A stretch of 64,000 nt of DNA, from contig CAYXVY010000337.1 of the NCBI GenBank assembly GCA_964468745.1, positions 5,390 to 69,389 of the forward strand. The letters run 5' to 3'. Positions 34,228 to 54,127 of this stretch are shown here, piece after piece. Positions within the stretch are counted from its first letter, which is position 1; every line of letters begins with the position of its first letter. Under the pieces are notes generated by a model, which saw only the letters and a list, made by a program, of their open reading frames with translations, was not told the origin of the DNA and did not search any database. This DNA is from an uncultured Planctomycetales bacterium (GTDB lineage: Bacteria > Planctomycetota > MHYJ01 > JACPRB01). The translations under genes and the position numbers were made by a program.

Positions 34228-34650
34228 CTATTCGTCGCGACTGCTGTCCTCCGGGGCCTGCTCCGCTTCCTGTCCTTCTTGTCCGTTCGGCACCGACACC
34301 GGCACTGGCACCTCGATCTTGCGGTCAAGGAACTGGATCCGGTCCGCCGTCACCTCGATCTTCGAGCGATTCTGTCCCTCCTTGTCCGACCAGCGGCTCT
34401 GACGCAGCTGCCCGACGACCATGCACGTGCTTCCCTTCTTGAGGAACTGGCAGGCGATCTCCGCTTGGTGGCGCCACACCGTGATCTCGATGAAGCTCAC
34501 GGTTTTCTTCAAGGTTCCGTCCTGCTGCGGCACCTCTTTGTTCACGGCGAGCGCGAATTTTGCGTACGGCAGCGCGCCGTTCGCGCCGTACTTGAGCTCC
34601 GGGTCGCGCGTCAGGCGCCCCACGAGAATCACGAGACTGTAGTCACGCAT
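34228..34650 (-). CDS. Second SSB paralogue lacking the aromatic C-terminal tail
   Basis: VILVGRLTRDPEL.Y, G.LRQSRW.DK.GQ.RSK..V.A; AGGAGG RBS; ends DSSRDE. Confidence 0.9.
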   Translation of the reverse strand: MRDYSLVILVGRLTRDPELKYGANGALPYAKFALAVNKEVPQQDGTLKKTVSFIEITVWRHQAEIACQFLKKGSTCMVVGQLRQSRWSDKEGQNRSKIEVTADRIQFLDRKIEVPVPVSVPNGQEGQEAEQAPEDSSRDE

Positions 34651-34963
34651 GGCCGCGCCTCCTTTTGCACACGTCGTCACCGCTCTTCGCGCGTCTCATC
34701 GCCGCGCACACAACGGGTTCCCTGCAAGCGGCATGCCACGAGGCCATGCGCAAGGCGCTGCGCGGCAACAGCCAAGCGCGTGTCGCGATAGGGCACAGAT
34801 GAAAGTGTTTCCGGGGGAAACGCGGCGTTTCCGGGAGAAACGCGGTCGCGCTCGAGCCCTCGCGCGTCGAAAGCACGCGTCGGGATGAGCCGGAGTGCTC
34901 GCCGGCGACCGTAAAGGACGAAAAGCGCGCCAAATGTATTTTTTCAGCGCGTCAAGTTTCTCG

Positions 34964-38223: not shown

Positions 38224-39078
38224 ATGAAGACCGTGCTTGTTGCGTTCTCGCTGATTGCCGCGTTTGCCGTTCCCGCGTACGGGCAGTGATGCCCGCCGAG
38301 TGACGGCGGGATCCCCGGCGGGGGTCCCGGTCTGATCGCGACGGGGAATTCGAATGAGTGGCTTCCCGGCGCGGGCGACAAGCAGACCAACAAGGTCGTC
38401 AACACAATCAAGATGCGGTACTACACCGCCGGCGACGTGGTCCCCACTACGCTGAAGGAGATGCTCAGGAAACTCCGTGGGGTCGAGAGCATCAAGAACG
38501 CGTCGGCCGAGCGGGCGATCCTGCTCGGATGGTCCAGGGAGTGCTCCGGACTCGCCGACCTCGAGAAGGCCGCCGGCGTGCAGGCCGTCATCATCAACCA
38601 CGCGCACGTCGACGTGCGGTTCAAGGCGACCAAGGACACCAACCTCAGGAAGCTCCAGGAGGAGATGGCAAGAGTCCCCGGCGTATTCGGCATCAAGTGG
38701 TGGGAAGGGGGGGCGTACCTCCACTCGAATCTCGACGGCCTGTCTGTGGACGCGATCTACGCGATCGCGAAGGAATGTAATTTCACGGCTACGGTTCACA
38801 ATCTCCACGAGACGACGGTCACGATCCCGCTCGACGACGATAAGACGCAGATGATCGCGGAGAACGCCCCGTTCGTCGCGGAACAGCTGCTCGAAGTGTG
38901 GTCTCGCGAAAAGGCGTGGAAGTTCAAGAACGTTCTCGAACGCCGCAAGACGGTGCTCGTGGCTCGTATCCGCGAGGGGAAAATCTCGATCCTCTCGCGA
39001 GAGCTGCTGACGACGAGCGACGTCGAGAAGGATGCCAAGGCCGCCGGCGTGACGATCGGAGAAGTCACGAAGCCCTGA
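38224..39078 (+). CDS. Candidate secreted selenoprotein (in-frame UGA at codon 22, U-C) with HMA/ferredoxin-like repeats
   Basis: GAGGA RBS, signal MKTVLVAFSLIAAFAVPAYG-Q, TGA 38287-38289, then TGC; the frame continues uninterrupted into ORF 38413..39078; downstream hairpins. Confidence 0.7.
38308..38328 (+). promoter_or_regulatory. SECIS-like hairpin
   Basis: GGGAUCCCC-GGC-GGGGGUCCC, loop G at +28 from the UGA; a competing hairpin CCCGCCG-AGUGA-CGGCGGG lies at 38292-38310. Confidence 0.45.
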
Positions 39079-39189
39079 CCGCTACTTGCCGCTACAGGAC
39101 AGCATCTCGAGCTTCTCCCTGGGCGTCGAGGTGGCGCGCGATGGTCAACGCTTTGTCGTCCGGCGGTCCGGTTGCTACGATCTGACCGA

Positions 39190-40797
39190 ATGGACACCCT
39201 GCGGAGTCGCGTCAGTGCGTCGTCCCCGGAATTTCAGGCGTCAGCGGCGCATCATCGCAAGCTTGCGGAAATGCTCCGGGAGCGCGTCGGGAAGGCGCGC
39301 GCGGGAGGTCCGGCATCGGCCGTGGAGACGCAGCGGAAGCGCGGGAAGCTCCTCGTGCGCGAGCGAATCGAGCGTTTGCTCGATCCCGAGACGCCGTTCC
39401 TCGAGCTTTCGGCGCTCGCGGCCTGGGGACGTCATGACGGAGAGGCGCCCGGAGCGGGCGTGGTCACGGGGATCGGTCGCGTTTCGGGCCGCGAAGTGCT
39501 GATCGTCGCGAACGATCCGACCGTGAAGGGGGGCACGTACTTCCCCGAGACAATCAAGAAGCACATCCGCGCGCAGGAAGTGGCGATGGATAACCGTCTG
39601 CCGTGCGTCTATCTCGTCGACAGCGGTGGCGTGTTCCTGCCGCTCCAAGCAGAGGTGTTTCCGGACAAGGAGCACTTCGGCCGCATCTTCTACAACCAGG
39701 CGGTGATGAGCGCCGCGCGCATTCCGCAGGTGTCGGTCGTGCTCGGCATGTGCACCGCCGGCGGAGCCTACGTGCCGGCGATGTCGGACGAGAACGTCAT
39801 CGTGAAGGGCGCGGGGACGATCTATCTCGGCGGGCCGCCGCTTGTGAAGGCCGCGACCGGCGAGGAAGTCACGGCCGAGGAACTTGGCGGCGGCGAGATG
39901 CACTCGCGCGTCTCCGGCGTCACGGATCATCTGGCCGAGAGCGAGGAGCACGCGCTGCGGATCGCGCGCGATATCGTGGCGAACCTCAACATCGTCAAGC
40001 GCATCGATCTAGAGCTCGTGCCGCCGGAGGAACCCGCGTACCCCGGCGAGGAACTCTATGGCGTGCTTCCGACGGAGACTCGGCACCCCTACGACGTACG
40101 CGAAGTGATCGCCAGGCTTGTCGACGGCAGCCGATTTCACGAGTTCAAGGCGAACTACGGTACCACGCTGGTCACCGGGTTTGCGCGCTGGTGGGGATAC
40201 CCGGTCGGCATCGTCGCCAACAACGGTGTCCTCTTCAGCCAGAGTGCGCAAAAGGGGGCTCATTTCGTCTCCCTGTGCTCGCAACGCCGCACGCCGCTGA
40301 TCTTTCTCCAGAACATCACCGGATTCATGGTCGGCAAGCGGTACGAAGAGGGCGGGATCACGAAGGATGGAGCGAAGATGGTGCAGGCGGTCGCAACCGC
40401 CGCGGTGCCGCGCATCACGGTCATCATCGGCGCGTCGCACGGAGCGGGGAACTACGCGATGTGCGGTCGCGGGTATCGCCCGCGATTTCTCTTCACGTGG
40501 CCGAACGCGCGCATCAGTGTCATGGGCGCGGAACAGGCGGCGAGCGTGCTCGTCCAGATAAAGCGCGAACAGCTCGCCCGCGAGGGAAAGCAACTTTCGG
40601 CCGAGGAGGCGAAGAAGATCGCGGATCCCGTGCTTGAGAAATACGAGCGCGAAGGCGATCCGTACTTCGGGTCGGGCCAGCTGTGGGACGACGGCATCAT
40701 CGATCCGGCGGAGACGCGGAAGATCGTGGCGCTCGCCCTGTCGGCGAGCCTCAACGCGCCCGTGGAGAATTCGATGGCCCCTGTTTACCGGATGTGA
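39190..40797 (+). CDS. liuB: Methylcrotonyl-CoA carboxylase beta (carboxyltransferase) subunit
   Basis: [32 protein letters not shown]. Confidence 0.92.
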
Positions 40798-40798
40798 C

Positions 40799-41569
40799 AT
40801 GGAGACGATCAAGGTCGAAACGAGCGGACCCGTCGCGCGCGTCACGCTGAACCGTCCCGACGTGAAGAATGCGTTCAACGAGGTCGTCATAAAGGAACTG
40901 CGCGACACGTTCGTTGGAATGCCGGAGGCGGTGCGCGTCGTCGTGCTCACGGGGGCAGGCGATGTCTTCTGCGCGGGCGCCGACATCAACTGGATGAAGA
41001 AGTCGAAGTCGTACACCGAGGACCAGAACGCGGCGGACGCGGCGGCGATGAGCGGCATGTTCCGCGCGATCGACGAGAGTCCTCGCGCGGTGATCGGCCG
41101 CATCAACGGTGTCGCGCTCGGCGGGGGAACCGGATTGACGGCGGTCTGCGACATGGCCGTCGCGGTGGAAGGGGCGCAATTCGGATTCACCGAGGCACGG
41201 CTCGGGATCGTCCCCGCCGTGATTTCGGCGTACGTGCTGCCGAAGGTCGATGAATCCGCGGCGCGACGCTATTTCCTGACGGGTGAGCGTTTCGGTGCAG
41301 ACGAGGCGAAGCGCATCGGACTCGTGCACGAGGTGGTGAAGCCTGAAGCGCTCGATGCAAAGGTGGACGAACTTGTGAAGGCCGTGCTCTCGTGCGGACC
41401 GAAGGCGGTCGGCATCGCGAAGCGGCTCATTCATGACGAGCGGCACATGTCGCGTGACGAGGCCGTCGCTTACACCGTGAAGACGATCTCGCGTGTCCGC
41501 GTGACGCCAGAGGCGCAGGAGGGGCTGGGCGCGTTCCTCGACAAGCGGAAACCCACTTGGGCTCAATGA
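40799..41569 (+). CDS. liuC: Methylglutaconyl-CoA hydratase (crotonase family)
   Basis: LNRPDVKNAF, FCAGAD, GGG.GL..VCD, TEARLG..P; operon context. Confidence 0.88.
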   Translation: METIKVETSGPVARVTLNRPDVKNAFNEVVIKELRDTFVGMPEAVRVVVLTGAGDVFCAGADINWMKKSKSYTEDQNAADAAAMSGMFRAIDESPRAVIGRINGVALGGGTGLTAVCDMAVAVEGAQFGFTEARLGIVPAVISAYVLPKVDESAARRYFLTGERFGADEAKRIGLVHEVVKPEALDAKVDELVKAVLSCGPKAVGIAKRLIHDERHMSRDEAVAYTVKTISRVRVTPEAQEGLGAFLDKRKPTWAQ

Positions 41570-42990
41570 AGGTACTGGTCGCGAACCGGGGCGAGATCGC
41601 ATGCCGCATCCTGCGCACGCTCCGCGAGATGGAAATCCCCTCCGTCGCCGTGTACAGCGACGTCGACAAGGACGCGCCGCACGTGGAGCTCGCCGATGAT
41701 GCTGTCGGACTCGGTGCGACAGACGGCTATCTCAAGCACGAACTTGTCATCGACGCAGCTAGAAGGACTCATTCGACGGCGATTCACCCGGGCTACGGAT
41801 TCCTATCGCAGAGCGCGCCGTTCGCACGTGCTTGCCGCGATGCCGGGCTCATGTTCATCGGGCCGTCGCCCGAGTCCATGATTGCGCTCGGCGACAAGCG
41901 GGGCTCGCGAAAGACCGCGGAGGATCTTGGCGTGCCCGTCGTGCCGGGCGTGCGCGAATGCGACACGCTGGAATTGTGCAGGGCGGCCGGCGATACGATT
42001 GGGTACCCGATCCTCATCAAGGCGGCCGGCGGCGGAGGAGGGAAGGGGATGCGGCTCGTGAATTCGGCCGCCGAGTTGACGGACGCGTTCGAGGGCGCGA
42101 AGCGGGAGGCGCAAGCGTCGTTCGCGGATGACCGGCTCATCGTCGAGAAATATGTGGCGCCGGCGCGTCATGTCGAAGTGCAGATCATCGGCGACGGGAC
42201 AGATGCAGTCGCGCTTGGCGACCGCGAGTGCAGCCTGCAGCGCCGCTACCAAAAGGTCATCGAGGAGGGTCCGTCGAGCGGAATCACCGAGAAGACGCGG
42301 CAGGGACTATTCCAGTCCGCGGTGAAGCTCGCGCGCGCGACGAAGTACGCAAATGCCGGGACCGTCGAGTTTCTCGTCGGTCCGGACGGTTCGCACTACT
42401 TCCTGGAGGTCAACACGCGCCTTCAGGTCGAGCATCCCGTGACGGAGATGTTGACGGGGCTCGATATCGTGCGCGCGCAGATCGAAATCGCGCGAGGCGG
42501 AAAGCTCCCTGCGTACGTGCCGCCGCGGGGTCACGCGATCGAGGCGCGGCTCAACGCGGAGGATCCGTACAACAGGTTCCTGCCTCAGTCCGGAAACGTG
42601 CTCGCGCTCGAGTGGCCGCAGATGCCGGGGGTGCGCGTGGACGCGGGAATCGTCCCGGGGTTCGAGGTGCGCCCGTTCTACGATCCGCTGCTCGCGAAGA
42701 TCATCGCGCTGGCGTCGACGCGCGAGGGGGCCCGGCGACGTCTCATCGAGGCCCTTAGGGGGACGACGCTGCTGGGCGTCACGACCAATCAGCCCTTCCT
42801 GATCCAGCTCCTCGAGAGCGAGTTCTTCAGGAAGGGCGAGACGTTCACATCGACGCTTGAGTCCGTCGAGTGGATGGAGCCTCCGGTACCCGAGCACGTT
42901 GTTGCAGCGGCGCGAAGGGTGCTGGCCACGCGCGTCGACGTGAAGAGCGGGGGCGCGGGCGATCGATGGTCGCCCTGGAGCACACGATGA
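41566..42990 (+). CDS. Biotin carboxylase subunit (MccA/LiuD N-terminal part)
   Basis: VANRGEIA, HPGYGFLS, GGGGKGMR, ECSLQRRYQK, EVNTRLQVEH. Confidence 0.93.
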   Translation: MKVLVANRGEIACRILRTLREMEIPSVAVYSDVDKDAPHVELADDAVGLGATDGYLKHELVIDAARRTHSTAIHPGYGFLSQSAPFARACRDAGLMFIGPSPESMIALGDKRGSRKTAEDLGVPVVPGVRECDTLELCRAAGDTIGYPILIKAAGGGGGKGMRLVNSAAELTDAFEGAKREAQASFADDRLIVEKYVAPARHVEVQIIGDGTDAVALGDRECSLQRRYQKVIEEGPSSGITEKTRQGLFQSAVKLARATKYANAGTVEFLVGPDGSHYFLEVNTRLQVEHPVTEMLTGLDIVRAQIEIARGGKLPAYVPPRGHAIEARLNAEDPYNRFLPQSGNVLALEWPQMPGVRVDAGIVPGFEVRPFYDPLLAKIIALASTREGARRRLIEALRGTTLLGVTTNQPFLIQLLESEFFRKGETFTSTLESVEWMEPPVPEHVVAAARRVLATRVDVKSGGAGDRWSPWSTR

Positions 42991-43316
42991 AACTCAGGAT
43001 CGTCCGGACGGCGACCGGCGTCTGGGTCGGTTGGTCGGGTCGCGCGAAATTCTTCGGTGCGGAGCGAACCGTGGCCGCTGCATCCGCCGCAGGTCATGAC
43101 GAGGTGCGCGCGCCCATGACGGGCAAGGTCGTGAAGCTCAACGTCGCCGTCGGCGCGAAGGTGAAGGCGAACGACGTGGTCGCCATCATGGAAGCGATGA
43201 AGATGGAGTATCGTCTCGCCGCACCGCACTCGGGTACGGTCGACGGCGTGACCTGCAAGGAAGGCGAGCTGGTCGATCTCGGGAAGCCGCTCGTTTCGAT
43301 CAAGCCCGACGGCTAG
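42987..43316 (+). CDS. Biotin carboxyl carrier protein (separate gene)
   Basis: APMTG.V..EAMKME biotin-Lys motif; ATGA overlap with the previous gene. Confidence 0.92.
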   Translation: MKLRIVRTATGVWVGWSGRAKFFGAERTVAAASAAGHDEVRAPMTGKVVKLNVAVGAKVKANDVVAIMEAMKMEYRLAAPHSGTVDGVTCKEGELVDLGKPLVSIKPDG

Positions 43317-43756
43317 ACCATCCGGCGAAGCTCGACGAGAGCGCCGGCCACGCGTTTCACGTACCAGTCGGCGCCGAGAAAGCGGACGACGCCGCCGGGT
43401 GCGAGATCGGACCGTTCGCGGCTGAGTTGCACGAGGAAGGTGTCCTTGGAGACGGCGCGCTGAGCGACGATGTCCGCGGCGGCCAAGTCATCCTTCACAG
43501 GACGGCCCGCGGCAAGTTCGTACATCCGCCGGAAGCCGCTGTCGGTGAATCCGCGGTGGGTGCGCTTGAGTTCGGGCAGCGCCTGATCGGCAGCGATTCC
43601 GTCGTCGTGCATCTTCCTCGCCGTCGCGATGACCTTCTTCATCAGCTCCTTCGTGTAGCTGATGCCGACCATCGTCATGCTCTCGCGCGGCATGCGGAGT
43701 TCGCGAGTATCGCCGAGTTTCTGCGTGCGGCGCGTCTCGTCAGCCATCGCCGACAT
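43313..43756 (-). CDS. Hypothetical protein
   Basis: Good GC3 bias; translationally coupled to rpiB. Confidence 0.65.
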   Translation of the reverse strand: MSAMADETRRTQKLGDTRELRMPRESMTMVGISYTKELMKKVIATARKMHDDGIAADQALPELKRTHRGFTDSGFRRMYELAAGRPVKDDLAAADIVAQRAVSKDTFLVQLSRERSDLAPGGVVRFLGADWYVKRVAGALVELRRMV

Positions 43757-44208
43757 TAAGGCACGGCCGTTGGCGGAAGTCCACCATCGACCATGCGGAT
43801 GCGCCGCTCGTGACGCCCGCCCTCAAATGGAGTCGCGAGCCAGATGCGCACGATCTCGAGCGCCGTGTTGATCGACATCATGCGCTGCCCAAGCGAAAGG
43901 ACGTTTGCGTCGTTGTGCGCGCGTGCGAGCCGCGCCGATTCCGCATTCCAGCAAAGCGCGCATCTCACGCCCTTCACGCGATTGGCGACGATCGCCTCGC
44001 CGTTCCCGGATCCGCCCAGGACAATGCCTCGCTCGTGGTCGCCGCGCGCGACGGATTCCGCGACAGGGCGGATGAAGAGCGGGTAGTCCACGGGCTCGGC
44101 GGAGCTTGTCCCGAAATCGCGAACGTCGTGCCCCTCACGCGCGAGAAACTCGATAAGGCGCTGTTTGTAATCGTATCCGGCGTGATCGGAACCGATGGCG
44201 AGCTTCAC
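43756..44208 (-). CDS. rpiB: Ribose-5-phosphate isomerase B
   Basis: IGSDHAG, DYP, GGSGNG, HNDANVL, FEGGRH.RR; GTG start at 44208. Confidence 0.96.
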   Translation of the reverse strand: MKLAIGSDHAGYDYKQRLIEFLAREGHDVRDFGTSSAEPVDYPLFIRPVAESVARGDHERGIVLGGSGNGEAIVANRVKGVRCALCWNAESARLARAHNDANVLSLGQRMMSINTALEIVRIWLATPFEGGRHERRIRMVDGGLPPTAVP

Positions 44209-44270
44209 CCGCGGATTGTAGCGCGCGATTCGCTTGCGCACAGCACGGCCTCGATTCCACAATCTGCCGC

Positions 44271-45119
44271 ATGATCCGGATCGTCGAAGTGGGCCCTCGC
44301 GACGGACTGCAGAACGAGCAGACGACGATTCCGACCGACGCGAAGGTGGCGTACATCGACGCGCTCTCGTCCTCGGGAGTCTCGGAGATCGAGGCGAGCG
44401 CATTCGTGTCGCCGAAGTGGATCCCGCAGCTGTCCGACGCTTCCGAAGTGTTCAAGCGGATCGTCCGCAACCCGAAGGTGGTCTACTCGGCACTCGTACC
44501 CAACATGCAGGGGCTGGACCGTGCCGTTGAGGCGAAGGTGGACAAGGTCTCGGTGTTCACGGCCGCGAGCGAGACGTTCAATCGGAAGAACATCAATGCG
44601 TCGATCGCGGAGTCGATCGAGCGGTTCGCGCCCGTCCTTCAGCGCTCGAAGCAGCTCAAGTTGCCGGTGCGGGGCTACGTTTCGACGTGCTTCTGGTGCC
44701 CCTACGAAGGGAAGATCGAGGCGCAGAAGGCGATCGACGTCGTCATGAAGCTGATCGATCTGGGCGTCGACGAGGTGTCGATCGGCGACACCATCGGCAA
44801 GGCGGACGCGAACGAAGTGCGCGATTTCGTGCAGCTGCTCGTGCCGCGGGTGCCGGTCGGAAAAGTCGCGATGCACTTCCATGACACCTACAAACACGCG
44901 CACGAGAACGCACTGCTCTCGTGGCGCTTCGGCATCACGACTTTCGACTCGAGCGCGGGGGGGATCGGCGGATGCCCGTATGCGCCCGGCGCTTCGGGCA
45001 ACGTGGCGACCGAGTCGCTCGTCTGGACGCTGCGGGAGGCCGGCGCGGCGGTGGGCGTGAATCTCGAAGCGATCGCGAAGGCCCGCGCGATCATTGCCCC
45101 GGCCCTCGGGCGAATCTAA
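44271..45119 (+). CDS. liuE: Hydroxymethylglutaryl-CoA lyase
   Basis: EVGPRDGLQNE, HFHDT, GGCPYAPGASGN. Confidence 0.95.
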   Translation: MIRIVEVGPRDGLQNEQTTIPTDAKVAYIDALSSSGVSEIEASAFVSPKWIPQLSDASEVFKRIVRNPKVVYSALVPNMQGLDRAVEAKVDKVSVFTAASETFNRKNINASIAESIERFAPVLQRSKQLKLPVRGYVSTCFWCPYEGKIEAQKAIDVVMKLIDLGVDEVSIGDTIGKADANEVRDFVQLLVPRVPVGKVAMHFHDTYKHAHENALLSWRFGITTFDSSAGGIGGCPYAPGASGNVATESLVWTLREAGAAVGVNLEAIAKARAIIAPALGRI

Positions 45120-45128
45120 CATCGCGGC

Positions 45129-46826
45129 ATGTCGCTGCCGCTGCTGGCGATCATCGTTCTCTCGGCGCTCGCGCTGGGCTACACGTTTTACGGGCGCTTT
45201 ATCGCGCGGCAGTACGCGCTCGACGACGGGGCGAAGACGCCTGCGGAACAGGTGAACGACGGCGTCGACTTCGTGCCGACGAAGCCGTTCTACCTGCTGG
45301 GCCAGCACTTCAGCGCGATCGCCGCGGCGGGTCCCATCGTCGGGCCGATCGTGGCCTGCCAGCAGTTTGGCTGGTTGCCGTGCATCCTGTGGATCGGACT
45401 GGGGGTGATCTTCGTCGGAGCGGTGCACGACTTCAGCGCGCTGGTCGCGAGCGTGCGCCACAAGGCGCGGACGATCGCCGAAATCGTGAAGGAGAATCTC
45501 GGTCGGCGTGCGTGGATCGCGATTCTCGCGTTCATCTGGATCGCGCTCGTGTATGTGATCGTCGCGTTCGCGGACGTGACAGCGTCGACATTCATGGGCA
45601 AGACTGAGGAGCTGGAGGGGAAATTGCCCTTCAATGCGGGCGGCGCGGTCGCCGCCGCCTCGATAATCTACCTGATCCTGGCGGTGGTGATGGGGTTGGT
45701 CCAGAAGCGCTTCAAGCCGCCGCTCGGCGCCATGACGGCGATCTTCGTGCCTGCCACGCTCGCGGCGGTGTGGCTCGGTACGAAAATCTCGACGCTGCTC
45801 GTCTTCTCGCACATGACGTGGGCTGTCGCGATCATGGTCTACTGCTTCGTCGCGTCGCTTATCCCGGTCTGGACCCTCCTGCAGCCGCGGGGGTATCTCG
45901 GTGGATTCGTTCTTTACATGGCGCTGGCGGTGGGCCTGATCGGCATCTTCTTCGGTGGGTTCGAGATCCTGCAGCCGGCGACGACGTCGGTGCCGCTGCT
46001 GGGATTTGAGAAGTCGCTCTTCCCGTTCCTCTTCGTGACGATCGCCTGCGGCGCGTGCAGCGGCTTCCACGGCCTGGTGTGCAGTGGAACCACGTCGAAG
46101 CAGATCGCGCGCGAGTCCGATTGCAAGCCGGTGGGATACGGCGGAATGCTGCTCGAGGGGTTTGTCGCGCTGATCGCCCTGGCCACGATCATGATCGTTG
46201 CGGTGCCGGCGAACGGAAAGTATGCGGGGCCGGGCAGGATCTACGGAGACGGCATCGCGCAGTTCCTGTGCGTGATCTTGGGGAAGGGGGCGCTCACATT
46301 CGCCATGACATTCGGCGCGATGGCATTTTCCACGTTCGTCTTCGACACGCTCGACGTTGCTACGCGGCTGGGGCGCTACATTCTGCAGGAGCTTTTCGGG
46401 TCGCACGGGACAGTCGGCGCGATCGTGGGCACGGCCGCGACTGCGGGCGTGCCGCTTCTCGTCCTGATCGGCGCGGGCGAAGGCGGGTACAAGACGTTTT
46501 GGGTACTGTTCGGAACGTCGAATCAGCTCTTGGCCGCTCTCACGCTGCTGGCCATTTCGGTTTGGCTGAAGCGGTCGGGCAGGCGCTGCTGGTTCACCGT
46601 GCTGCCCATGCTCTTCGTGATGACCATCACGCTCTGGTCGCTTGCCGGCCAGGCCCGAGGCTTCTTTCGGTCCATGAAGAACGCCGAAGGCGCGATCCAG
46701 GCCACGCCGCTCGCGAACGGAGTCGTTGCGGTGGTTCTGATTGCGCTCACGACTCTGCTGATTCTGGACGCCGTTCTCGCCTTGCGCCGTCCGCCTACCG
46801 CCCCGCCCGCGACCGTTCCAACTTAG
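45129..46826 (+). CDS. cstA: Carbon starvation protein A family transporter
   Basis: DGVDFVP, GQHFSAIAAAGPIVGP, IACGACSGFH, FG.SNQLLA. Confidence 0.93.
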   Translation: MSLPLLAIIVLSALALGYTFYGRFIARQYALDDGAKTPAEQVNDGVDFVPTKPFYLLGQHFSAIAAAGPIVGPIVACQQFGWLPCILWIGLGVIFVGAVHDFSALVASVRHKARTIAEIVKENLGRRAWIAILAFIWIALVYVIVAFADVTASTFMGKTEELEGKLPFNAGGAVAAASIIYLILAVVMGLVQKRFKPPLGAMTAIFVPATLAAVWLGTKISTLLVFSHMTWAVAIMVYCFVASLIPVWTLLQPRGYLGGFVLYMALAVGLIGIFFGGFEILQPATTSVPLLGFEKSLFPFLFVTIACGACSGFHGLVCSGTTSKQIARESDCKPVGYGGMLLEGFVALIALATIMIVAVPANGKYAGPGRIYGDGIAQFLCVILGKGALTFAMTFGAMAFSTFVFDTLDVATRLGRYILQELFGSHGTVGAIVGTAATAGVPLLVLIGAGEGGYKTFWVLFGTSNQLLAALTLLAISVWLKRSGRRCWFTVLPMLFVMTITLWSLAGQARGFFRSMKNAEGAIQATPLANGVVAVVLIALTTLLILDAVLALRRPPTAPPATVPT

Positions 46827-47823
46827 CTCGCGCGTCGCGCACCCACGATGAAAATTCGGCGTGCCTGTCGTGCGGCGGCTGAGAGAAGGCCAGGACCGTG
46901 ACCTCTGCATCGCCGAGGGCCGCGGCAATCGATGCGTGCGTCGCGCTGTCCGCGGGCGCCGTCGCGATCGTGGCGCGCAGCCGCTCGAGCGTACGGTCCC
47001 GTGCGCGCGCAATCGCAGCCGCGTGGTCCGGGAGCGCGGACAGTCGGGCGATGCCCGCGTTGCAGCGCGCTTCGACGTCGAACCCGGCGAGATACCCGCC
47101 CGTCACGAGTGCGCCGCGGACATCTTCCGCCCTCGGATGCCCGCCGATCTCCTTGAGCAGCATCTCCGCCTCTGCGATGAACGCGTCGCGATCCGTCGGA
47201 GAGAACCCCCTGCCGTCCTTGACGCGCGTCGTGCACGCACGCACGCGCGCCACGACGCCGAGCTCAGAATCATCCGCGACGCCGAGCGCCGTCTCGCGCA
47301 GCTGGCGATGCCTGCAGAGCCCTTCCATGCGGTCGGCCCACACGTCGAATTGGGCTGCCGAGCGGCACGACCGCCAGCGGCGCTCGAATTCCTCGATGCT
47401 CACGCGTTCGCCCAGTCCCTGCCGGATGCGCTGCACCAGCAGCTCAGGAAAACGTTCGACGTACTCCTGCGCACAGGGGCCTGTTGCGGTGTCCGCCCAG
47501 AACTGGTCGATTGTTTCTCCCTGCGCGTCGCGGACCACGATCCACAGCAGGTCGTCCACGACGTCGAATCTGCGGCGGAGTTCACCGGCTTCGGCGCGCC
47601 GCACGGCCGCCACCGGCACACGCGCGCACAGCTCCGCGACGTCGGGGGAGCGAAGCAGGACCGCCTCGCCGCACGGGATCAGGTCTCAGTGGACAGGGGC
47701 GTCGATCCCGATCAGCAGCACGCGCGCCAAGGCCGTGTCTCCGCTCCAGCGCGGCGCAGGCGGCACATCGACGGCCACAACGGCTCCGCCCAGCACGAGG
47801 GCCGCGATCAGTCGCGCGTGCAT
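46795..47823 (-). CDS. Candidate exported thioredoxin-like selenoprotein (in-frame UGA at codon 46)
   Basis: MHARLIAALVLGGAVVA signal, then ..DAPVH-[TGA 47686-47688]-DLIPC-GEAVLLRSPDVAELC..LRRRFDV..WIVVRDAQGE (Trx-like); in frame with ORF 46795..47619; SECIS-like hairpin. Confidence 0.72.
47650..47669 (-). promoter_or_regulatory. SECIS-like hairpin
   Basis: GCGAGGCG-GUCC-UGCUUCGC with apical G25-U26 downstream of the UGA. Confidence 0.6.
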
Positions 47824-47852
47824 CGCACCACTATACACGCAGCGGGGGCCGG

Positions 47853-48465
47853 CTATTCCAGCGCGACCTCGTGCCGAACCGCGCGGTCGCCGGCGGCGTC
47901 GTTCACGAGCGTGAGAATGGGTGCGATACGGCCCCACGCGGAGGCTCGCGGCGCCCGCAGGACGATCGTGATCGCGTGCGCGTGGATTGTTGCGAGCAAC
48001 TCGACAACGGCGGTGCGCAAGCCGTCGTCGGGATTGGAGTCGCGCGCAATTCGCACGGTCAGTTCGCACCGTGACGGTCGCGCCACCAGGTGCACGTCGC
48101 CCGAGGATCGTTCGACATCCCTCGGTGGCGGGCGGGTGTCCGGGCCGGGCATGGATCCGCGATCGGGGCGCGGCGCAAACCGCAGCGCGACGCGCGTCGT
48201 GCCGTGCGAGAGATCGAGCGCCCGCACGTCCGATCGAGCGGCCTGCTCCGCCAGCGCGCTGATTGCGGCCATCGAGACGTCGGCATCGACCGCGACCGCG
48301 ACGGCGCCCGAACGTCCCCGATCACGAAGCACGCGCGTTGCGTCGGGCAGATCGACGCTGCCCACGCGAACCATGCCGTCGCGCTCGACGCGCAGCATCC
48401 CTGCAGGCAGGGGTTCAGACTCCTGCCCGCACGCGGAGAGCAGGAGGAGCGCGATTACACTCCGG
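47853..48465 (-). CDS. Lipoprotein-like protein with ExbD/TolR-like periplasmic segments; start codon unclear
   Basis: IALLLLSA-C lipobox-like; V.V..D..V....I..L pattern; no in-frame start near the signal. Confidence 0.45.
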
Positions 48466-48961
48466 AGCGCACCAGGACGTGCGTGTCCCCCATCGACGGC
48501 GCGGAAATCTTGCGCGCTTCGATGCGGTACTTTTTCGCCTTCGCGTCGAACGTCAGCAGCAACGCCATGCGCGAGGTGCAATGCGGGCACTGGACGCGAT
48601 GGTTGTAGAGCTTCCGGGTGATCCGGAGTGGATTGCCGCAGGTGCACAGCAGCATCATATCCTCCGGCGGCTCCGGAAGGCCGGGCTGCTTGGGCTCATC
48701 GACGTAGCTGTCCACGAACATCGGCACGGCGATGGCGGCGCCCGACGCCGTATGCTGTGTGAAGACCGTGAACTTGCGGGTGCAGCCGTGGCATTCCCAC
48801 ACACGGTCGCCACCTGTGCGCGTCGCGAATACGATTTCCCCGCACAGACACGCGATCTCGACGAGCGCGTCGAGAGGATGTCCGCACGATGTGTCTCTCT
48901 CGGAATCGTACATCTCGCCTCCTACCACCTGTGCATTATCGTACCCATATGCGTCGGCCAT
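48455..48961 (-). CDS. Double Zn-ribbon protein
   Basis: CLCG..CHGC, CTCG..CPHC. Confidence 0.75.
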   Translation of the reverse strand: MADAYGYDNAQVVGGEMYDSERDTSCGHPLDALVEIACLCGEIVFATRTGGDRVWECHGCTRKFTVFTQHTASGAAIAVPMFVDSYVDEPKQPGLPEPPEDMMLLCTCGNPLRITRKLYNHRVQCPHCTSRMALLLTFDAKAKKYRIEARKISAPSMGDTHVLVRSGV

Positions 48962-48971
48962 GCAAGACGAA

Positions 48972-49415
48972 TCAGGCCATATCGGCCCGCCGTGGCCAGA
49001 GCCCGTACGTCCGCGTTTCCGGCACGTATCGCAACTGCAGGAGCAGCGGCGTTGCGCAGTCGGGGCACGGACGCGTGGTGTCGTACATCGCTCGTGAAGC
49101 GACGAGCTCCGCGTGGCACGGGGGGCAGACGAAGTGCATCACGTCCGGCACGCTCTCGCGCGGCTCCTCGCGATGGACTCCGTCTTCGACGAACAACGGG
49201 AGCACCGACTCCTCGCCTGTGGCGCGATGGGTTTGGAAGACGACCAGGAACTTGCGTTCGCAGCGCCGGCACGCCACGGGCTCGTCCGCCGCGCCGCGAT
49301 CGACCTCGACGACGAGCCCGCACAGGCACGAGACGTGCAGCGCCGATTCAATGGGTGCGTGCACCGGAACGGGCGCGCGCCGGAGCGGGGCGCGAGCGAC
49401 CTTGCGCGGCGACAT
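48972..49415 (-). CDS. Double Zn-ribbon protein (tandem paralogue)
   Basis: CLCG..CRRC, CPPC..CPDC; colinear with 48455..48961. Confidence 0.7.
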   Translation of the reverse strand: MSPRKVARAPLRRAPVPVHAPIESALHVSCLCGLVVEVDRGAADEPVACRRCERKFLVVFQTHRATGEESVLPLFVEDGVHREEPRESVPDVMHFVCPPCHAELVASRAMYDTTRPCPDCATPLLLQLRYVPETRTYGLWPRRADMA

Positions 49416-49473
49416 CCCTGCTTAGACACCACGCATCAAGCGCCCATATGGGGAATCAAGGACCCATCGCGAT

Positions 49474-50904
49474 TTACGATCCGCGTTCGGCGCTCGGGGG
49501 GGCCTTCTTCAGCTTCTGCCCCTCTTTCGTGTCCTCGACGTGCCAACCCTTCGCCTTGATCGCGTCGCGGAGTTGATCGGACTCCTTGAAGTTCTTCGCC
49601 TTTCGCGCCGCCGCCCGCTGATCCGCGAGCGCGACCACCTCGGGCGGAGCCTGGTCATCGGAGGTGTCGAGAAAGCCGAAGACCGAATTGAATCTCTCCA
49701 GGGTCTCGAGCGCGCCGGGCACCGCGGCGCCGCGGTCGAGCGAGCGGTTGACGTCCGTGACGAACTCGTGCACCGCGCCCAGGGCGCCGGCGACGTTAAG
49801 GTCGTCGTCCATCGCAGACGTGAAGGCGGCCTTCGCCTTCGTCGCCGCCTCGGCGTCCGCGCCGGGAGTCGGTACGAGGCGGGTACGGAAATCCCGGAAG
49901 CGCTGGACGGCGGCTGCCGCGTCCTCGAAGCTCTTGAGCGTGTAGTTCACCTGCATCCGGTACTGCGTGCTCGTCAGCGCGTACCGGATGGCGTGGGGCG
50001 ACCACTGCTTGAGCAGGTCCGCGACGGTGAAGAACGTCCCGTCGGACTTGGACATCTTCTTTCCATTCCAGAGCAGGTGCCGCGCGTGCATCCAGTACCG
50101 CACGAACGGCTTGCCGTTGGCGGACTCGCTCTGCGCAATCTCGCACTCGTGGTGCGGGAAAATGTTGTCCTCGCCGCCGGTGTGGATGTCGAAGGTCTCG
50201 CCGAGATACTTCTTCGACATCGCCGAGCACTCGATGTGCCAGCCCGGGAAGCCGCGTCCCCACGGCGAGTCGAATTGCATGAGGTGCCCGGGGTCGGTCT
50301 TCCAGAGCGCGAAATCGGCCGGGTGGCGCTTCTCCGGATTCACGTCGACGCGCGCGCCCGCCTTCATCTGGTCCAGCGTGTTGTTGGACAACCGCCCGTA
50401 GGACGCAAACTTCGTCACTTCAAAGTAGATGTTGCCGCCGACGCGATACGCGAGACCCTTCCCGAGCAGCACCCCGATCATCTCGATCATCTCGGGGACG
50501 TGCGCGGTGGCCTTCGGGTAGACGTGCGCGTCGAGGAATCCGAGCGTGCGCCGCGCGTCCATGTACTCCTTCGTGAAGTGCTCCGCGACTTGGTAGGGGT
50601 CGTTGACGTTGACACCCTTCTCGCGCAGCCGGCGCAGTCCCTCTTCCATCTTGTCGACGCCCGCCTCGACATCGTCGCGGGTGAGATGCCCGACGTCGGT
50701 GATGTTCATCACCTGCGTGACGGCGTGGCCGGTGTACTCGAGATACCGCCGCAGCGTGTCGGCGAAGAGAAACGTGCGGAAGTTCCCGACGTGCGGAGAG
50801 TCGTACACCGTGGGCCCGCAGTTGTAGACCCGGACCTTGCCCGCGTCGAGGGGCTGGAAGTCCTCGAGCTTGCGCGTGAGCGAATTGAAGAACCGCAGGG
50901 GCAT
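49474..50904 (-). CDS. cysS: Cysteinyl-tRNA synthetase
   Basis: CGPTVYD..HVGN, GFPGWHIECS, HHECEIAQS, KMSKS. Confidence 0.98.
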   Translation of the reverse strand: MPLRFFNSLTRKLEDFQPLDAGKVRVYNCGPTVYDSPHVGNFRTFLFADTLRRYLEYTGHAVTQVMNITDVGHLTRDDVEAGVDKMEEGLRRLREKGVNVNDPYQVAEHFTKEYMDARRTLGFLDAHVYPKATAHVPEMIEMIGVLLGKGLAYRVGGNIYFEVTKFASYGRLSNNTLDQMKAGARVDVNPEKRHPADFALWKTDPGHLMQFDSPWGRGFPGWHIECSAMSKKYLGETFDIHTGGEDNIFPHHECEIAQSESANGKPFVRYWMHARHLLWNGKKMSKSDGTFFTVADLLKQWSPHAIRYALTSTQYRMQVNYTLKSFEDAAAAVQRFRDFRTRLVPTPGADAEAATKAKAAFTSAMDDDLNVAGALGAVHEFVTDVNRSLDRGAAVPGALETLERFNSVFGFLDTSDDQAPPEVVALADQRAAARKAKNFKESDQLRDAIKAKGWHVEDTKEGQKLKKAPPSAERGS

Positions 50905-50907
50905 GAC

Positions 50908-51387
50908 CTAGGCCCCGCCTACCCGTTTCAGCAGGGCGACGGCGAGGCAGGCGATGGCTTCGCTGTGCCCGACGGGTCCGAGGCCTTCGGCGGTTTTGGC
51001 CTTGACGTTGACGGCGCCTTCCGCGAGATGCGCGAGCCGCGCGATGCTGCGCGCGATTTCCTTCTTTCGTTCGCCAAGTTTCGGTTCCTCCGCCACGATG
51101 GTGACGTCGATGTTCTCAATCGTCCAACGCCCGCGAAGTTCGTCGAGCGCGCCATTCAGGAACTGCTCGCTGGCCGCCCCCTTCCAGCGCGGATCGGTGT
51201 CCGGAAAGCGATCCCCGATGTCGCCCGCCCCGGCCGCCCCCAGGAGCGCGTCCACGACGGCATGCAGCACGACGTCGCCGTCGGAATGCCCCTCGAGTCC
51301 GCGCGGGTGATCGATGGCGACGCCGCCGAGAAGGAGGCGCCGACCGGAGACCAGCTTGTGGATGTCGAACCCGAGTCCGACCGACAT
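50908..51387 (-). CDS. ispF: 2-C-methyl-D-erythritol 2,4-cyclodiphosphate synthase
   Basis: G.GFDIH, GHSDGDV..HA..DALLGA, GDIG..FP, VKAKTAE. Confidence 0.96.
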   Translation of the reverse strand: MSVGLGFDIHKLVSGRRLLLGGVAIDHPRGLEGHSDGDVVLHAVVDALLGAAGAGDIGDRFPDTDPRWKGAASEQFLNGALDELRGRWTIENIDVTIVAEEPKLGERKKEIARSIARLAHLAEGAVNVKAKTAEGLGPVGHSEAIACLAVALLKRVGGA

Positions 51388-51405
51388 GTGAGCGGCGATT
51401 ATACT

Positions 51406-52713
51406 ATGGTCATGTCGCTCCTTCTCCTCTGTTCGCTCGCGCTGCAGGGCTCTGCCGAGCTGGACGAAACAATTGCGATCGAGCGGCGCAAGATGGCGAT
51501 TACGCTCGAGGAGATGAGGGCGTGGGGCTGGGCGCGACTGGAATACCGCAAGCTTCTGCGGCTGGCACCCAAGGACGAGGTCGCTCAGCGGAAGCTCGTC
51601 GGCACCGAGGCGATCGCGCTGACGAACGAGAAAACCACGCCGGAACTTGTCAGCAAGTATGTGTCGATGCTCGCGGAGATCGCCCGCATCGCGGCGGACG
51701 GTCACGCGGCCTTGGCAAAATCGGGCGACGATGCGGAGCGCCATTGGCGGCTTGCGCTTCTCTACGCGCCCGCGCGAGAAGACGCCCTTGCGGCGCTCAA
51801 ATTCGCCGGCGGCAGCGATCCGATCTGGAAGGACGTCCGCTGGAAAGACCTGCTCGCGAAGGCGGATTCCGGCACGCCCGTTGACGAGAAGAGCGACCTC
51901 GAGACGAAGTGGTCGATCAAGACGACGAAGCGCGACGCGCCAAGCCTCGCATGGGAGGGTGTCGACGTCGAGCAGGACCACCTGCGCCGGCTCGCGCGCC
52001 AGGCGGAGGCGTCCGCGTCGCTGCTGCGGATTGCGCTCGGCGATGCGGAACTCAAGCCGTGCGTCAAGCGGATCGTCGTCATGACCGGCAAAGCCCCCTA
52101 TTCCCGCTACATCGACGACTTCGTCGTTGCGGACGATGCGGTGAAGAAGCTGCTCAAGAAAACCGGAGGGCTGCAGAACATCCAGCGCGACGAGTTCGTC
52201 GAGTTCGCGTTCGACAAGGGCTCCGACTGGCACGACCACAACATCGCGCACGCCGTGGGTGAGTTCGTACTCGCCTCCGCGCTCGGCAAACGCGACTACG
52301 ACGACATGCCCGCGTGGCTCAAGGAAGGGGTCGGTTGCCTCTGCGACATCCTCTTCCGCGGGAGCGTGAAGGCGTCCTGTGTCGAGGTTCCGACCGGCAC
52401 GGGCGCGGGTGACGTGCCGTGGACGGACTCGACACGCTGGGATGAGAATCTGAAGGGGCTCGTCGCGAAGGGGCGCGACCCGGAGCTGACAGACGTCTTC
52501 GCGGTGACGCTCAACGCGATGAAGGGGGACCACCGCGCGAAGGCGGCGAGCGTCGTCAGGATGCTCATCTTGCGCTGGCCGGCGGGTTTTCGGGCGATCG
52601 TTGCCGGGGTGCGGAAGGAGGGGGCGATGTCTCGCGGCGCCTTCGAAGCGGCGCTCGGCATCACCATCGAAGAGCTCGACGAGTTCTGGCGACGCTGGCT
52701 GCGGGGCGCGTGA
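51406..52713 (+). CDS. Secreted hypothetical protein, possibly with a zincin-like C-terminal domain
   Basis: Signal MSLLLLCSLAL-Q; HAVGE and P.WL.EG-like segments seen in MA-clan peptidase-like domains. Confidence 0.65.
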   Translation: MVMSLLLLCSLALQGSAELDETIAIERRKMAITLEEMRAWGWARLEYRKLLRLAPKDEVAQRKLVGTEAIALTNEKTTPELVSKYVSMLAEIARIAADGHAALAKSGDDAERHWRLALLYAPAREDALAALKFAGGSDPIWKDVRWKDLLAKADSGTPVDEKSDLETKWSIKTTKRDAPSLAWEGVDVEQDHLRRLARQAEASASLLRIALGDAELKPCVKRIVVMTGKAPYSRYIDDFVVADDAVKKLLKKTGGLQNIQRDEFVEFAFDKGSDWHDHNIAHAVGEFVLASALGKRDYDDMPAWLKEGVGCLCDILFRGSVKASCVEVPTGTGAGDVPWTDSTRWDENLKGLVAKGRDPELTDVFAVTLNAMKGDHRAKAASVVRMLILRWPAGFRAIVAGVRKEGAMSRGAFEAALGITIEELDEFWRRWLRGA

Positions 52714-53090
52714 TGCTGATCGCTCTACTCGTCGCTGCAGCGTTCGGCGCGGCGCTGTCGATCTACACGTTGCGCGTGATGGCCTGCGGGGGCGACGCGT
52801 GCGATTTCGTGATGTCGAGTCGATTCGCGCGCGTCTTCGGATTCCCGAACGCGGCGCTCGCGCTGGCATACAACGTCGCGCTGATGGCGTTCGCGTCGCT
52901 GCGCCTGGCGCACATCGCTGTGCCGCTCTGGCCTGCGCTTGCGGCGTGTGCGGCAAGCCTCGTCATGACGGCCTATCTCGCGTTCGCGCTGCTCGTTCGC
53001 GTGAAGCGGACCTGACGGCTCTGAATCGCGGGCTACGCGATCAACGCGGCGGTCGCCGCGATCCTCGGCGCGCTCTGGTTCTACAGCTGA
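52713..53090 (+). CDS. Vitamin K epoxide reductase (VKOR)-family protein with U-x-x-U active site (candidate diseleno-protein)
   Basis: Loop CGGDAC.FVMSS..ARVFGFPNA.L...Y; TM; then KRT-TGA(53013)-R-L-TGA(53022)-IAGYAIN and a final TM to the TGA at 53088. Confidence 0.85.
53025..53060 (+). promoter_or_regulatory. Two tandem SECIS-like hairpins
   Basis: AUCGCG-GGCUA-CGCGAU (53025-53041) and CGCGGC-GGUC-GCCGCG (53045-53060). Confidence 0.6.
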
Positions 53091-54127
53091 AGCAGGGGCA
53101 GCAGCCTGTTGGGCGACTGCAGCATCAGGAGCGAGAGCGACGTCGCATACGCACGGCAGCAGAGGCAGTACTCGATCGTCCACGAGCCGTCGGCGTTCTG
53201 GATCTTGACGAGCTGGCCGCGCAGCTTCGGAAACCACTCCTTCCACGCCGGGCCGTTCTCGTGGAGCAGCGCCATGACGGCGTAGAATCCGCCGCAGTAG
53301 TCCCATTCCGAGATCTTGCCGCCGTAGTCGTCGCCGAGCTTCTTGCCCACGAGGACCTTCACGCCCGCCGTGACTTCCTTCATGTCGCCGCGGCCCATGC
53401 CGTACAGGATGCGCAGGCCCGCGGAGGTCGGATAGAACATCTGGCCGCCCCCGCCGCGCACCGACGGGTGCTGATCGAATCCGCCGGAGGGGTGCGCGCA
53501 GCTTTTTACGAACTTCTCGACCTTCGAGATGCTCGCGTTCTCAACGACGGCCCCCGAGTTGTGCGCCGCCCGAAGCGCCAGCCAGACATTGCACGTGATC
53601 GCCAGGTCGGAATTTCCCCCCGACCCCTGTGCGTCCCACCCGCCGTCCTTGTTCTGCTTCCTATAGAGGTAGGCGAGCGCCTTGCGAAGGGCGGCCGCGA
53701 GCGGCTCGGAATCCTCCTGCGGGTCCTGCATTCCGTAGAACTCCGCGAGCGCGAGGGTGGCGCAGGAGTGATCGTAGAAGATGCCCATTCCGGTCGAGTC
53801 GTGCTGCGTGATCTCGCCGGAATTCTTCTGGATCGCGATCATCTTCGCGATGGCGCGCGTGATGGCTTCCTTGTGCGGCCCGCGCGACGGCGTACTCCCC
53901 TCGGCGGCGAGCGCAAGCGCGGACAGGGCCGTGATGGCCGTTGAAGGCGCGCCCGAGCGTTCGCATCCCCACAGGCCGTCGGGATTCTGGTTCTTGAGAA
54001 GCCAGTCGATCCCCTTCTTGATGGACGCCTCGGCGTCGAGCGGCTTTTCGGGGACGGATTTGTCGTCCTGCGGCCACACCGATGCGGCACCCGTCACCAT
54101 CAGCAGGAGCGCCAGTCGTAGGGCCAT
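53081..54127 (-). CDS. Secreted prenyltransferase/squalene-oxidase-repeat protein
   Basis: KGIDWLLKNQNPDG.W, QNKDGGW, QNADGSW QW repeats; signal peptide. Confidence 0.85.
   Translation of the reverse strand: MALRLALLLMVTGAASVWPQDDKSVPEKPLDAEASIKKGIDWLLKNQNPDGLWGCERSGAPSTAITALSALALAAEGSTPSRGPHKEAITRAIAKMIAIQKNSGEITQHDSTGMGIFYDHSCATLALAEFYGMQDPQEDSEPLAAALRKALAYLYRKQNKDGGWDAQGSGGNSDLAITCNVWLALRAAHNSGAVVENASISKVEKFVKSCAHPSGGFDQHPSVRGGGGQMFYPTSAGLRILYGMGRGDMKEVTAGVKVLVGKKLGDDYGGKISEWDYCGGFYAVMALLHENGPAWKEWFPKLRGQLVKIQNADGSWTIEYCLCCRAYATSLSLLMLQSPNRLLPLLQL

Follow-up and report, generated by a model that had tools for sequence, protein, structure and literature searches.

Between positions 38,224 and 53,090 of a 64,000-nucleotide stretch of an uncultured Planctomycetales genome (contig CAYXVY010000337.1 of assembly GCA_964468745.1; GC content ~65%), the whole of which is referred to here as the window, lie three genes that are interrupted in frame by TGA: a gene for a protein of the VKOR family and two genes without named relatives, designated candidates A and B. 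VKOR is a functional substitute for DsbB acting as a quinone-dependent thiol oxidase, and both VKOR and DsbB supply the cell envelope with disulfides, passing the electrons on to quinones. The question then is whether the interrupting codons are stops or are read as selenocysteine (Sec, U). We favour, with a probability of about 0.78, the reading that all three are selenoprotein genes cut short by gene callers, the VKOR being the firmest case, candidate B a second true selenoprotein and candidate A a probable third, and that the VKOR is one member of a wider set of Sec-containing VKORs (Sec-VKORs).

TGA codons in the window

A codon-usage log-odds model trained on the confident genes of the window finds exactly three genes with an in-frame TGA over the whole 64 kb, carrying four such TGAs in total, and the in-frame score is positive on both flanks of each of the four and negative or lower in the other frames. 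Likewise, a scan of the entire window for coding-TGA-coding junctions returns the sites in candidate A, candidate B and VKOR only; the other same-frame junctions, at 22305, 22812 and 39076, were rejected as adjacent genes, in which a start codon follows right behind the stop and the gap scores negatively. By translation and by the codon-usage scan, the three interrupted genes thus sit where an earlier interpretation, made from the DNA letters and hereafter called the sequence-only reading, had located them. That reading had also assigned all three products to the membrane or the cell exterior, in agreement with the predicted signal peptides of candidates A and B and with the predicted position of the VKOR active site at the outer end of the fourth transmembrane helix (TM4). 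The features of the region are collected in Table 1.

Since TGA terminates 13 of the 39 long coding open reading frames (ORFs) in the window, a global reassignment of UGA is ruled out. The sequence-only reading had concluded the same, although of the examples that it gave only oppB ends in TGA, the stop codon being TAA in rpsR and TAG in both ssb genes.

Table 1. Features of the window and of related loci; positions are those of the window unless a locus is named
Feature	Position	Strand	Remarks
oppB (stop-codon check)	9085-10020	+	window reading
rpsR (stop-codon check)	29047-29319	-	window reading
Two ssb genes (stop-codon check)	29342-29791; 34228-34680	-; -	window reading
Two exported prenyltransferase/squalene-cyclase-like (alpha-alpha toroid) proteins	36343-38178; 53081-54127	+; -	flank the region; the second overlaps the VKOR 3' end
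Candidate A, orphan protein, predicted to be exported, 284 codons	38224-39078	+	signal peptide, then Q-U-C-P-P; Shine-Dalgarno-like GAGGA upstream of the ATG
Candidate A, putative Sec codon UGA (codon 22)	38287-38289	+	directly after the signal peptide; adjoins a Cys codon
Candidate A, putative SECIS	38307-38329	+	10-bp stem, GGC loop, -18.8 kcal/mol; UGA-to-loop distance 27 nt; matched or surpassed by 0.14% of window TGAs
Leucine-catabolism cluster	39172-45119		methylcrotonyl-CoA carboxylase beta, enoyl-CoA hydratase, biotin carboxylase, BCCP, HMG-CoA lyase; rpiB and a hypothetical gene inserted; lies between candidates A and B
Candidate B, unnamed family, 342 codons	46795-47823	-	predicted to be exported or membrane-anchored; N-terminal alpha/beta domain with U46 and conserved C66; C-terminal helical repeat
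Candidate B, putative SECIS	47649-47670	-	9-bp stem, GUCC loop, -12.2 kcal/mol; UGA-to-loop distance 24 nt; matched or surpassed by 2.3% of window TGAs
Candidate B, putative Sec codon UGA (codon 46)	47686-47688	-	aligned TGA in the window and in L001, L002 and L003
Lipoprotein-like ORF	47853-48647	-	lipobox-like 'LLLSAC'; orthologues in L002 and L003 (37-39% identity); only start codons far upstream, overlapping 48455-48961
Two paralogous small zinc-ribbon-like proteins	48455-48961; 48972-49415	-	CxxC-rich, without Pfam match; conserved in L002 and L003, again between cysS and candidate B
Exported 435-aa protein	51406-52713	+	no family match; translationally coupled to VKOR (ATGA overlap); absent upstream of VKOR (ispF-VKOR interval) in L002, L003 and L006
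VKOR gene, 125 codons	52713-53090	+	PF07884; predicted U-R-L-U active site
VKOR, putative first Sec codon UGA (UGA1)	53013-53015	+	CxxC position 1; Cys in P0002 and 130 other VKORs; TGA in L002, L003, L087, L088, L090, L094 and L095
VKOR, putative second Sec codon UGA (UGA2)	53022-53024	+	CxxC position 2, quinone-proximal by homology; as for UGA1, and TGA also in L091, L093 and L096
VKOR, additional hairpin AUCGCG-GGCUA-CGCGAU	53025-53041	+	directly after UGA2; lineage-specific, conserved only in the closest relatives (L002 and L003, with a compensatory A-U/G-C change); 69.7% paired over 11 genes
VKOR, putative SECIS CGCGGC-GGUC-GCCGCG	53045-53060	+	-10.8 kcal/mol; distance to the apical loop 35 nt (UGA1) and 26 nt (UGA2); matched or surpassed by 5% of window TGAs
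CxxU-type Sec-VKORs (predicted)	L091 6001-6351 onward; L093 134-523 onward; L096 8001-8369 onward		only the quinone-proximal position is UGA; DNA reading

The VKOR gene and its relatives

The VKOR gene is tightly packed between its neighbours, its start codon overlapping the stop of the upstream gene (ATGA) and its 3' end overlapping the convergent gene by 10 nt. When U is treated as C, the translated product scores 50.9 bits against Pfam PF07884 (cut-off 27.5) over residues 2-117 and profile positions 3-131 of 134, a match that spans both TGAs, and is related by phmmer to the Synechococcus VKOR with E = 1.3e-5. Around the TGAs the translation runs 'VKRT-U-RL-U-IAGYAINAAVAAILGALWFYS' (in short form 'KRT-U-RL-U-IAGY'), and the two codons align column-exactly with the active-site CxxC of the Synechococcus enzyme (4nv6/3kp9), that is with Cys130 and Cys133. 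Similarly, C26 and C31 align with the loop Cys pair C50/C56 of 4nv6 and are invariant in our VKOR alignment (A1). The only full-length close relative among 5.8 billion proteins, P0002, has CSYC at the active site and is 58% identical by BLASTP and 57% in alignment A1, while no relative turned up when GTDB genomes were scanned with the VKOR alignment.

Further relatives emerge once truncated gene calls are taken into account. In an exhaustive HMMER search with P0002 as query, gene calls that break off exactly at the CxxC make up most of the nearest cluster representatives; among the 150 nearest representatives of clusters at 50% identity there are about 19 such calls, 13 of them ending just before position 1 and six after 'C-x-L'. 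DNA was examined at eight of these loci. The stop proved to be TGA in all eight, with the frame running on through a normal TM4 to a later stop, and the active site is UxxU in five (L087, L088, L090, L094 and L095) and CxxU in three (L091, L093 and L096). Altogether, ten Sec-VKOR genes beyond the window come from independent assemblies (NCBI, JGI, ENA and Logan), seven of them UxxU (eight with the window) and three CxxU, so that the total is 11; the active site reads U-RL-U in L002, from an NCBI metagenome, and U-KL-U in L003 and L004, from JGI. In a rough neighbour-joining tree the Sec-VKOR forms occupy at least three positions among the Cys forms. Judged from these sequences, the window VKOR belongs to a wider, uncatalogued set of predicted Sec-VKORs, of both UxxU and CxxU type, which is spread over many metagenomes.

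Because the pairing of Sec with Cys at the CxxC is exact to the position, recurs in 11 genes and is accompanied by a hairpin at suitable spacing, the two VKOR UGAs are best read as Sec codons. At the periplasmic end of TM4, Sec thus very probably takes the place of both active-site cysteines, U-R-L-U being a chemical analogue of CxxC, and quinone/thiol-oxidase activity is predicted. The statement of the sequence-only reading that the UGAs occupy Cys-type positions accordingly holds for the VKOR, and does not extend to candidates A and B, which are without Cys-containing homologues.

Hairpins downstream of the UGAs

The published model of the bacterial Sec insertion sequence (bSECIS) specifies a stem of 4-16 bp, a loop of 3-9 nt with G within its first two positions, a distance of 16-37 nt between UGA and loop, and an energy of at most -7.5 kcal/mol (PMC13188914). 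In our scan, which used contiguous stems of at least 5 bp and took the 1466 TGA trinucleotides of the window as an empirical background, this model is satisfied by all four UGAs under study as against 11.9% of the background. Orthologues satisfy it too. The hairpin of candidate A is the strongest of the window's three candidate SECIS elements.

For the VKOR a comparative test is available. The GGUC hairpin is found in identical register in 10 of the 11 Sec-VKOR genes, including CxxU genes from other branches of the tree, and 90.9% of the alignment cells of its helix are paired over the 11 genes. Compensatory changes occur at two pairs, C-G/G-C and G-C/A-U, the latter by way of synonymous Ala codons. 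The helix codes for the peptide AAVA[A/V], which is found within 16 residues of the CxxC in none of 130 Cys-form VKORs, and the Cys-form VKOR orthologue L006 has no hairpin that qualifies under the bSECIS model. Given the fixed register, the compensatory changes and the absence of both peptide and hairpin from the Cys forms, there is good evidence that the GGUC hairpin acts as the SECIS of both UGAs and places a constraint on the protein sequence.

The CxxU genes bear on how such a site may have arisen. In L091 and L093 the single UGA is followed at 26 nt by the same GGUC hairpin; L096 has neither this hairpin nor the AAVA motif. Since the CxxU forms have Sec at position 2 together with the same SECIS at 26 nt, the comparison suggests that conversion proceeded in the order CxxC to CxxU to UxxU, the second step reusing an existing SECIS within its spacing tolerance.

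Rfam returns no SECIS match in the window. It does report the ALIL frameshifting pseudoknot (RF01497) across the VKOR UGAs and hairpins (52970-53058, + strand), at 28 bits against a gathering score of 50 bits; the segment lacks a slippery site, and we regard this as a chance match of two GC hairpins.

Candidate B

Candidate B reads 'LLIGIDAPVH-U-DLIPCGEAV' around its TGA. Its three database relatives were each called without the N-terminus; in the orthologous DNA, however, the frame continues upstream through a TGA at the same column, and the signal or anchor peptide is similar in L002 and L003 (L001 starts at a contig end). The orthologues are 84-86% (L001), 39-41% (L002) and 37-38% (L003) identical to the window protein, and all three have an equivalent hairpin 23-24 nt after the UGA. 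U46 and C66 are invariant, while the second Cys of 'U-DLIP-C' (U-x4-C) is not conserved in the orthologues. The TGA is very probably a Sec codon, and we read candidate B as a lineage-specific, true selenoprotein.

The description of this protein as thioredoxin-like, given in the sequence-only reading, could not be substantiated. Candidate B has no match in Pfam, NCBIfam or the PDB sequences, and hhalign against E. coli TrxA gives a probability of 2.9%. In an AlphaFold2 (AF2) model of the fragment that follows the UGA, so that strand 1 and the Sec lie outside it, the C-terminal 200 residues form a confident helical repeat, but the N-terminal domain has a predicted local distance difference test (pLDDT) score of only 34-48; the order of elements in this domain, alpha-beta-alpha-beta-beta-alpha, is that of the thioredoxin fold minus strand 1. 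A Foldseek search with the fragment model yields nothing at E <= 0.001, the best value being 0.11 and the hits being generic helical repeats. A thioredoxin-like fold is therefore possible, with the predicted element order as the one feature that fits. A further resemblance, of 'FWADTATGPC' to the thioredoxin motif 'FWAEWCGPC', was rejected as coincidence, the motif being followed by helices only and not conserved in L002 or L003.

Candidate A

In candidate A the signal peptide leads directly into the TGA ('MKTVLVAFSLIAAFAVPAYGQ-U-CPPSDGG', ending as '...PAYGQ-U-CPPSDGG'). No homologue was found besides its own shortened gene call (P0003), and a single-sequence AF2 model, with a mean pLDDT of 47.5, is unusable. 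It is in this gene that an alternative organisation has the most weight, namely a 21-codon upstream ORF ending at the TGA and a separate cytoplasmic protein of 221 aa starting at ATG 38413, which is the form given by the database gene call; lacking homologues, candidate A offers neither a Sec/Cys pair nor a conservation test by which the two arrangements could be compared. Yet the upstream ORF would then be a textbook signal peptide, complete with Shine-Dalgarno-like GAGGA, and the stretch of 41 codons that separates the TGA from ATG 38413 has a coding score of +21.5 and no start codon; moreover, a hairpin as strong and as well placed as that of candidate A is matched by very few TGAs of the window (Table 1). 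We consider the two-ORF arrangement rather unlikely, and on its sequence features candidate A is probably a selenoprotein, with appreciably less assurance than the other two.

The spacing of 'G-Q-U-C' in candidate A (38287-38292, + strand) is that of 'GxUC' in a CopZ-like (2Fe-2S)-binding selenoprotein family (PMC13188914), the likeness lying in motif spacing alone.

How the UGAs are read

Whatever the function of the three products, two other explanations of their UGAs have to be weighed against Sec. The TGAs might be ordinary stops, the genes being pseudogenes or carrying recent nonsense mutations or assembly errors, and their products being inactive. Gene callers do end the ORFs at these codons (P0001, P0003 and P0004), as the sequence-only reading rightly expected of standard callers, and Sec machinery is not seen within the window. 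Decay or error would nevertheless have to strike catalytic Cys columns in 11 independent VKOR assemblies while leaving frame, coding signal and TM4 intact downstream, to preserve the TGA of candidate B at ~37-41% protein identity, and to keep hairpins at a fixed distance; this explanation we consider extremely improbable. Alternatively, a suppressor or otherwise unusual tRNA might insert a standard amino acid (Cys, Trp or Gly), a possibility compatible with the want of demonstrated Sec machinery in the window and with UGA positions that would tolerate Cys. Here, the termination of a third of the genes by TGA, the confinement of the interrupting UGAs to redox-type positions, and, behind each UGA at bSECIS spacing, a conserved hairpin whose apical loop is rich in G and which the Cys forms lack, together constitute the signature of SelB-dependent recoding, and we give the suppressor explanation hardly more credence than ordinary stops.

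Several observations nonetheless temper the Sec reading. Neither selA, selB, selD nor a tRNA-Sec lies within the window, in which ARAGORN and Rfam find a tRNA-Ala only and Pfam covered essentially all genes; complete sets of Sec-insertion genes do exist in some Planctomycetes (PMC4807772). By its Prs protein, which is 85% identical to that of JACPRB01, the window is closest to Planctomycetota MAGs from groundwater; GCA_040960215.1 and GCA_040960765.1 are further relatives of this lineage. The Sec identity of the UGAs is read from sequence, very probably correctly for VKOR and candidate B and plausibly for candidate A. Covariation over the whole VKOR structure is modest, the observed score being reached by 11 of 500 shuffles; the SECIS helix sits in a conserved peptide, so that constraint at the protein level could explain part of its conservation; and whole-segment RNAfold z-scores against shuffles are not significant in this GC-rich DNA. 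Finally, no Cys-form homologue of candidate B was found among its database relatives, and candidate A, as noted above, stands without homologues.

Neighbourhood and the question of a relay

Genes are arranged in the same order in the window and in L002 and L003: VKOR, then ispF, cysS, the two zinc-ribbon proteins, the lipoprotein-like ORF and candidate B, then cstA. Five genes, ispF and cysS among them, thus separate VKOR from candidate B, a distance of ~5 kb. Because the ispF-VKOR interval of L002, L003 and L006 does not contain the 435-aa gene that precedes VKOR in the window, this gene is an insertion specific to the window genome.

The sequence-only reading had combined VKOR with a Sec-containing thioredoxin-like partner into a Dsb-type relay, and in its full form the proposal would unite three proteins in one dedicated selenium-based periplasmic system: the UxxU VKOR, candidate B, taken as its partner with a Sec thioredoxin fold, and candidate A. 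All three products are predicted to be extracytoplasmic; VKOR and candidate B, both Sec-encoded on our reading, keep their proximity in the window, L002 and L003; the predicted order of candidate B, beta-U-alpha-beta-alpha-beta-beta-alpha, is compatible with a thioredoxin fold; and a VKOR without a fused thioredoxin domain would need a separate partner. Against this, no sequence, profile or structure method supports a thioredoxin fold for candidate B, and the intervening genes include the housekeeping genes ispF and cysS. Importantly, since the three loci are syntenic throughout, other genes such as those for an FHA-HEAT protein and CstA included, the proximity of VKOR and candidate B may simply reflect their relatedness. 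Homologues of candidate A or B are found at none of the eight other Sec-VKOR loci, five of which have readable flanks while three contigs are too short to tell; in the five, the neighbours are unrelated, namely trpA; a kinase and an ECF sigma factor; an ABC transporter and an MBOAT protein; a radical SAM protein; and a thiolase with recA. Candidate A, for its part, is without orthologues and lies 14 kb from VKOR, beyond the leucine-catabolism cluster, and Pfam annotation of essentially all genes reveals no DsbA-type protein encoded in the 64 kb window. With linkage seen in three related, syntenic loci and absent from the five others that have readable flanks, the relay is not borne out and in our judgement improbable; nothing indicates any joint action of the three selenoprotein candidates.

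A more general conjecture, which we also regard as doubtful, would place Sec-VKOR at the entry of a selenium oxidative-folding pathway in some anaerobic or groundwater Planctomycetota and other uncultured bacteria, with U-x-x-U coupling thiol oxidation to a low-potential quinone, candidate B acting, in the lineage of the window, as a dedicated substrate or partner, and C26/C31 still being cysteine. If true, this would be a Dsb relay in which the quinone-reducing pair and its partner both employ selenium instead of sulfur.

A possible mechanism for Sec-VKOR

The recoding and the chemistry of the VKOR itself can be considered independently of any partner. The GGUC hairpin inside the coding sequence would recruit SelB with Sec-tRNASec for both UGAs. 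By homology, the active site of the product would face the periplasm, where C26/C31 would be reduced by a substrate or partner in that compartment and would in turn hand the electrons to U101/U104, and thence to quinone. In this scheme, the Sec at position 2 could serve as the nucleophile that attacks the quinone, while that at position 1 could speed exchange with the loop cysteines. Selenolates are better nucleophiles and leaving groups, and diselenides and selenenylsulfides have lower potentials. Sec chemistry might therefore favour the delivery of electrons to quinone, perhaps to menaquinone under low oxygen.

Significance

A VKOR of UxxU or CxxU type would amount to a natural experiment on Sec at a quinone-reactive membrane site, one that can be compared with its own CxxC relatives; the possible effects include greater nucleophilicity, a lower redox potential, or the use of low-potential menaquinone. 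The gene would likewise be a clean example of two phenomena: two UGAs, 9 nt apart, that share a single SECIS, and a transmembrane helix on which the SECIS forces a peptide motif, AAVAA. On the practical side, dozens of VKOR entries in the databases are cut at the active site and are due for re-annotation.

Comparison with known systems

Eukaryotic SelL is reportedly a UxxU selenoprotein. Among prokaryotes, a catalogue of May 2026 lists 119 selenoprotein families, including Sec-containing DsbA-like, DsbG-like and TlpA-like proteins and several UxxU proteins, with VKOR and DsbB absent (PMC13188914). Full-text searches of the searchable literature turned up nothing relevant on either VKOR or DsbB as a selenoprotein, and NCBIfam has no matching selenoprotein model. 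Sec-VKOR is thus absent from the current bacterial selenoprotein catalogue; the family and the recoding mechanism are known, and the predicted selenium active site is new.

With the catalogued periplasmic thiol-disulfide oxidoreductases (DsbA-like, DsbG-like, thiol:disulfide interchange protein and TlpA-like; PMC13188914, Table 1) Sec-VKOR would share the replacement of a redox Cys by Sec, the extracytoplasmic handling of disulfides and a downstream bSECIS. Those proteins, however, are soluble, of thioredoxin fold and equipped with UxxC or UGC motifs, whereas Sec-VKOR would stand at the head of the pathway as a polytopic oxidase coupled to quinone. Similarly, the catalogued UxxU proteins (a Prx-like thiol:disulfide oxidoreductase, an FmdB-family regulator and a putative mercuric-reductase-like metal-binding protein; PMC13188914) resemble it in having two Sec three residues apart, with a diselenide possible, and two UGAs 9 nt apart that presumably depend on one SECIS; they are soluble and of other folds, while the pair in Sec-VKOR would lie in a membrane helix beside the quinone site.

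In comparison with bacterial VKOR (Synechococcus, PDB 3KP9/4NV2/4NV6; PF07884), the window protein retains the four-transmembrane-helix core, the loop Cys pair, the Ser-rich 'SSRFARVFGFPNA' segment and the redox pair at the N-terminus of TM4. It differs in that both active-site residues are encoded by UGA (putatively Sec), that a fused thioredoxin domain is lacking, and that an intragenic putative SECIS hairpin imposes AAVAA on TM4. This hairpin in turn recalls the SECIS of E. coli fdhF with its GGUC apical loop: in both, a short GC stem capped by GGUC is placed inside the coding sequence downstream of UGA. In the VKOR hairpin the spacing is longer (26 and 35 nt to the loop), a bulged U was not identified, and one element would serve two UGAs.

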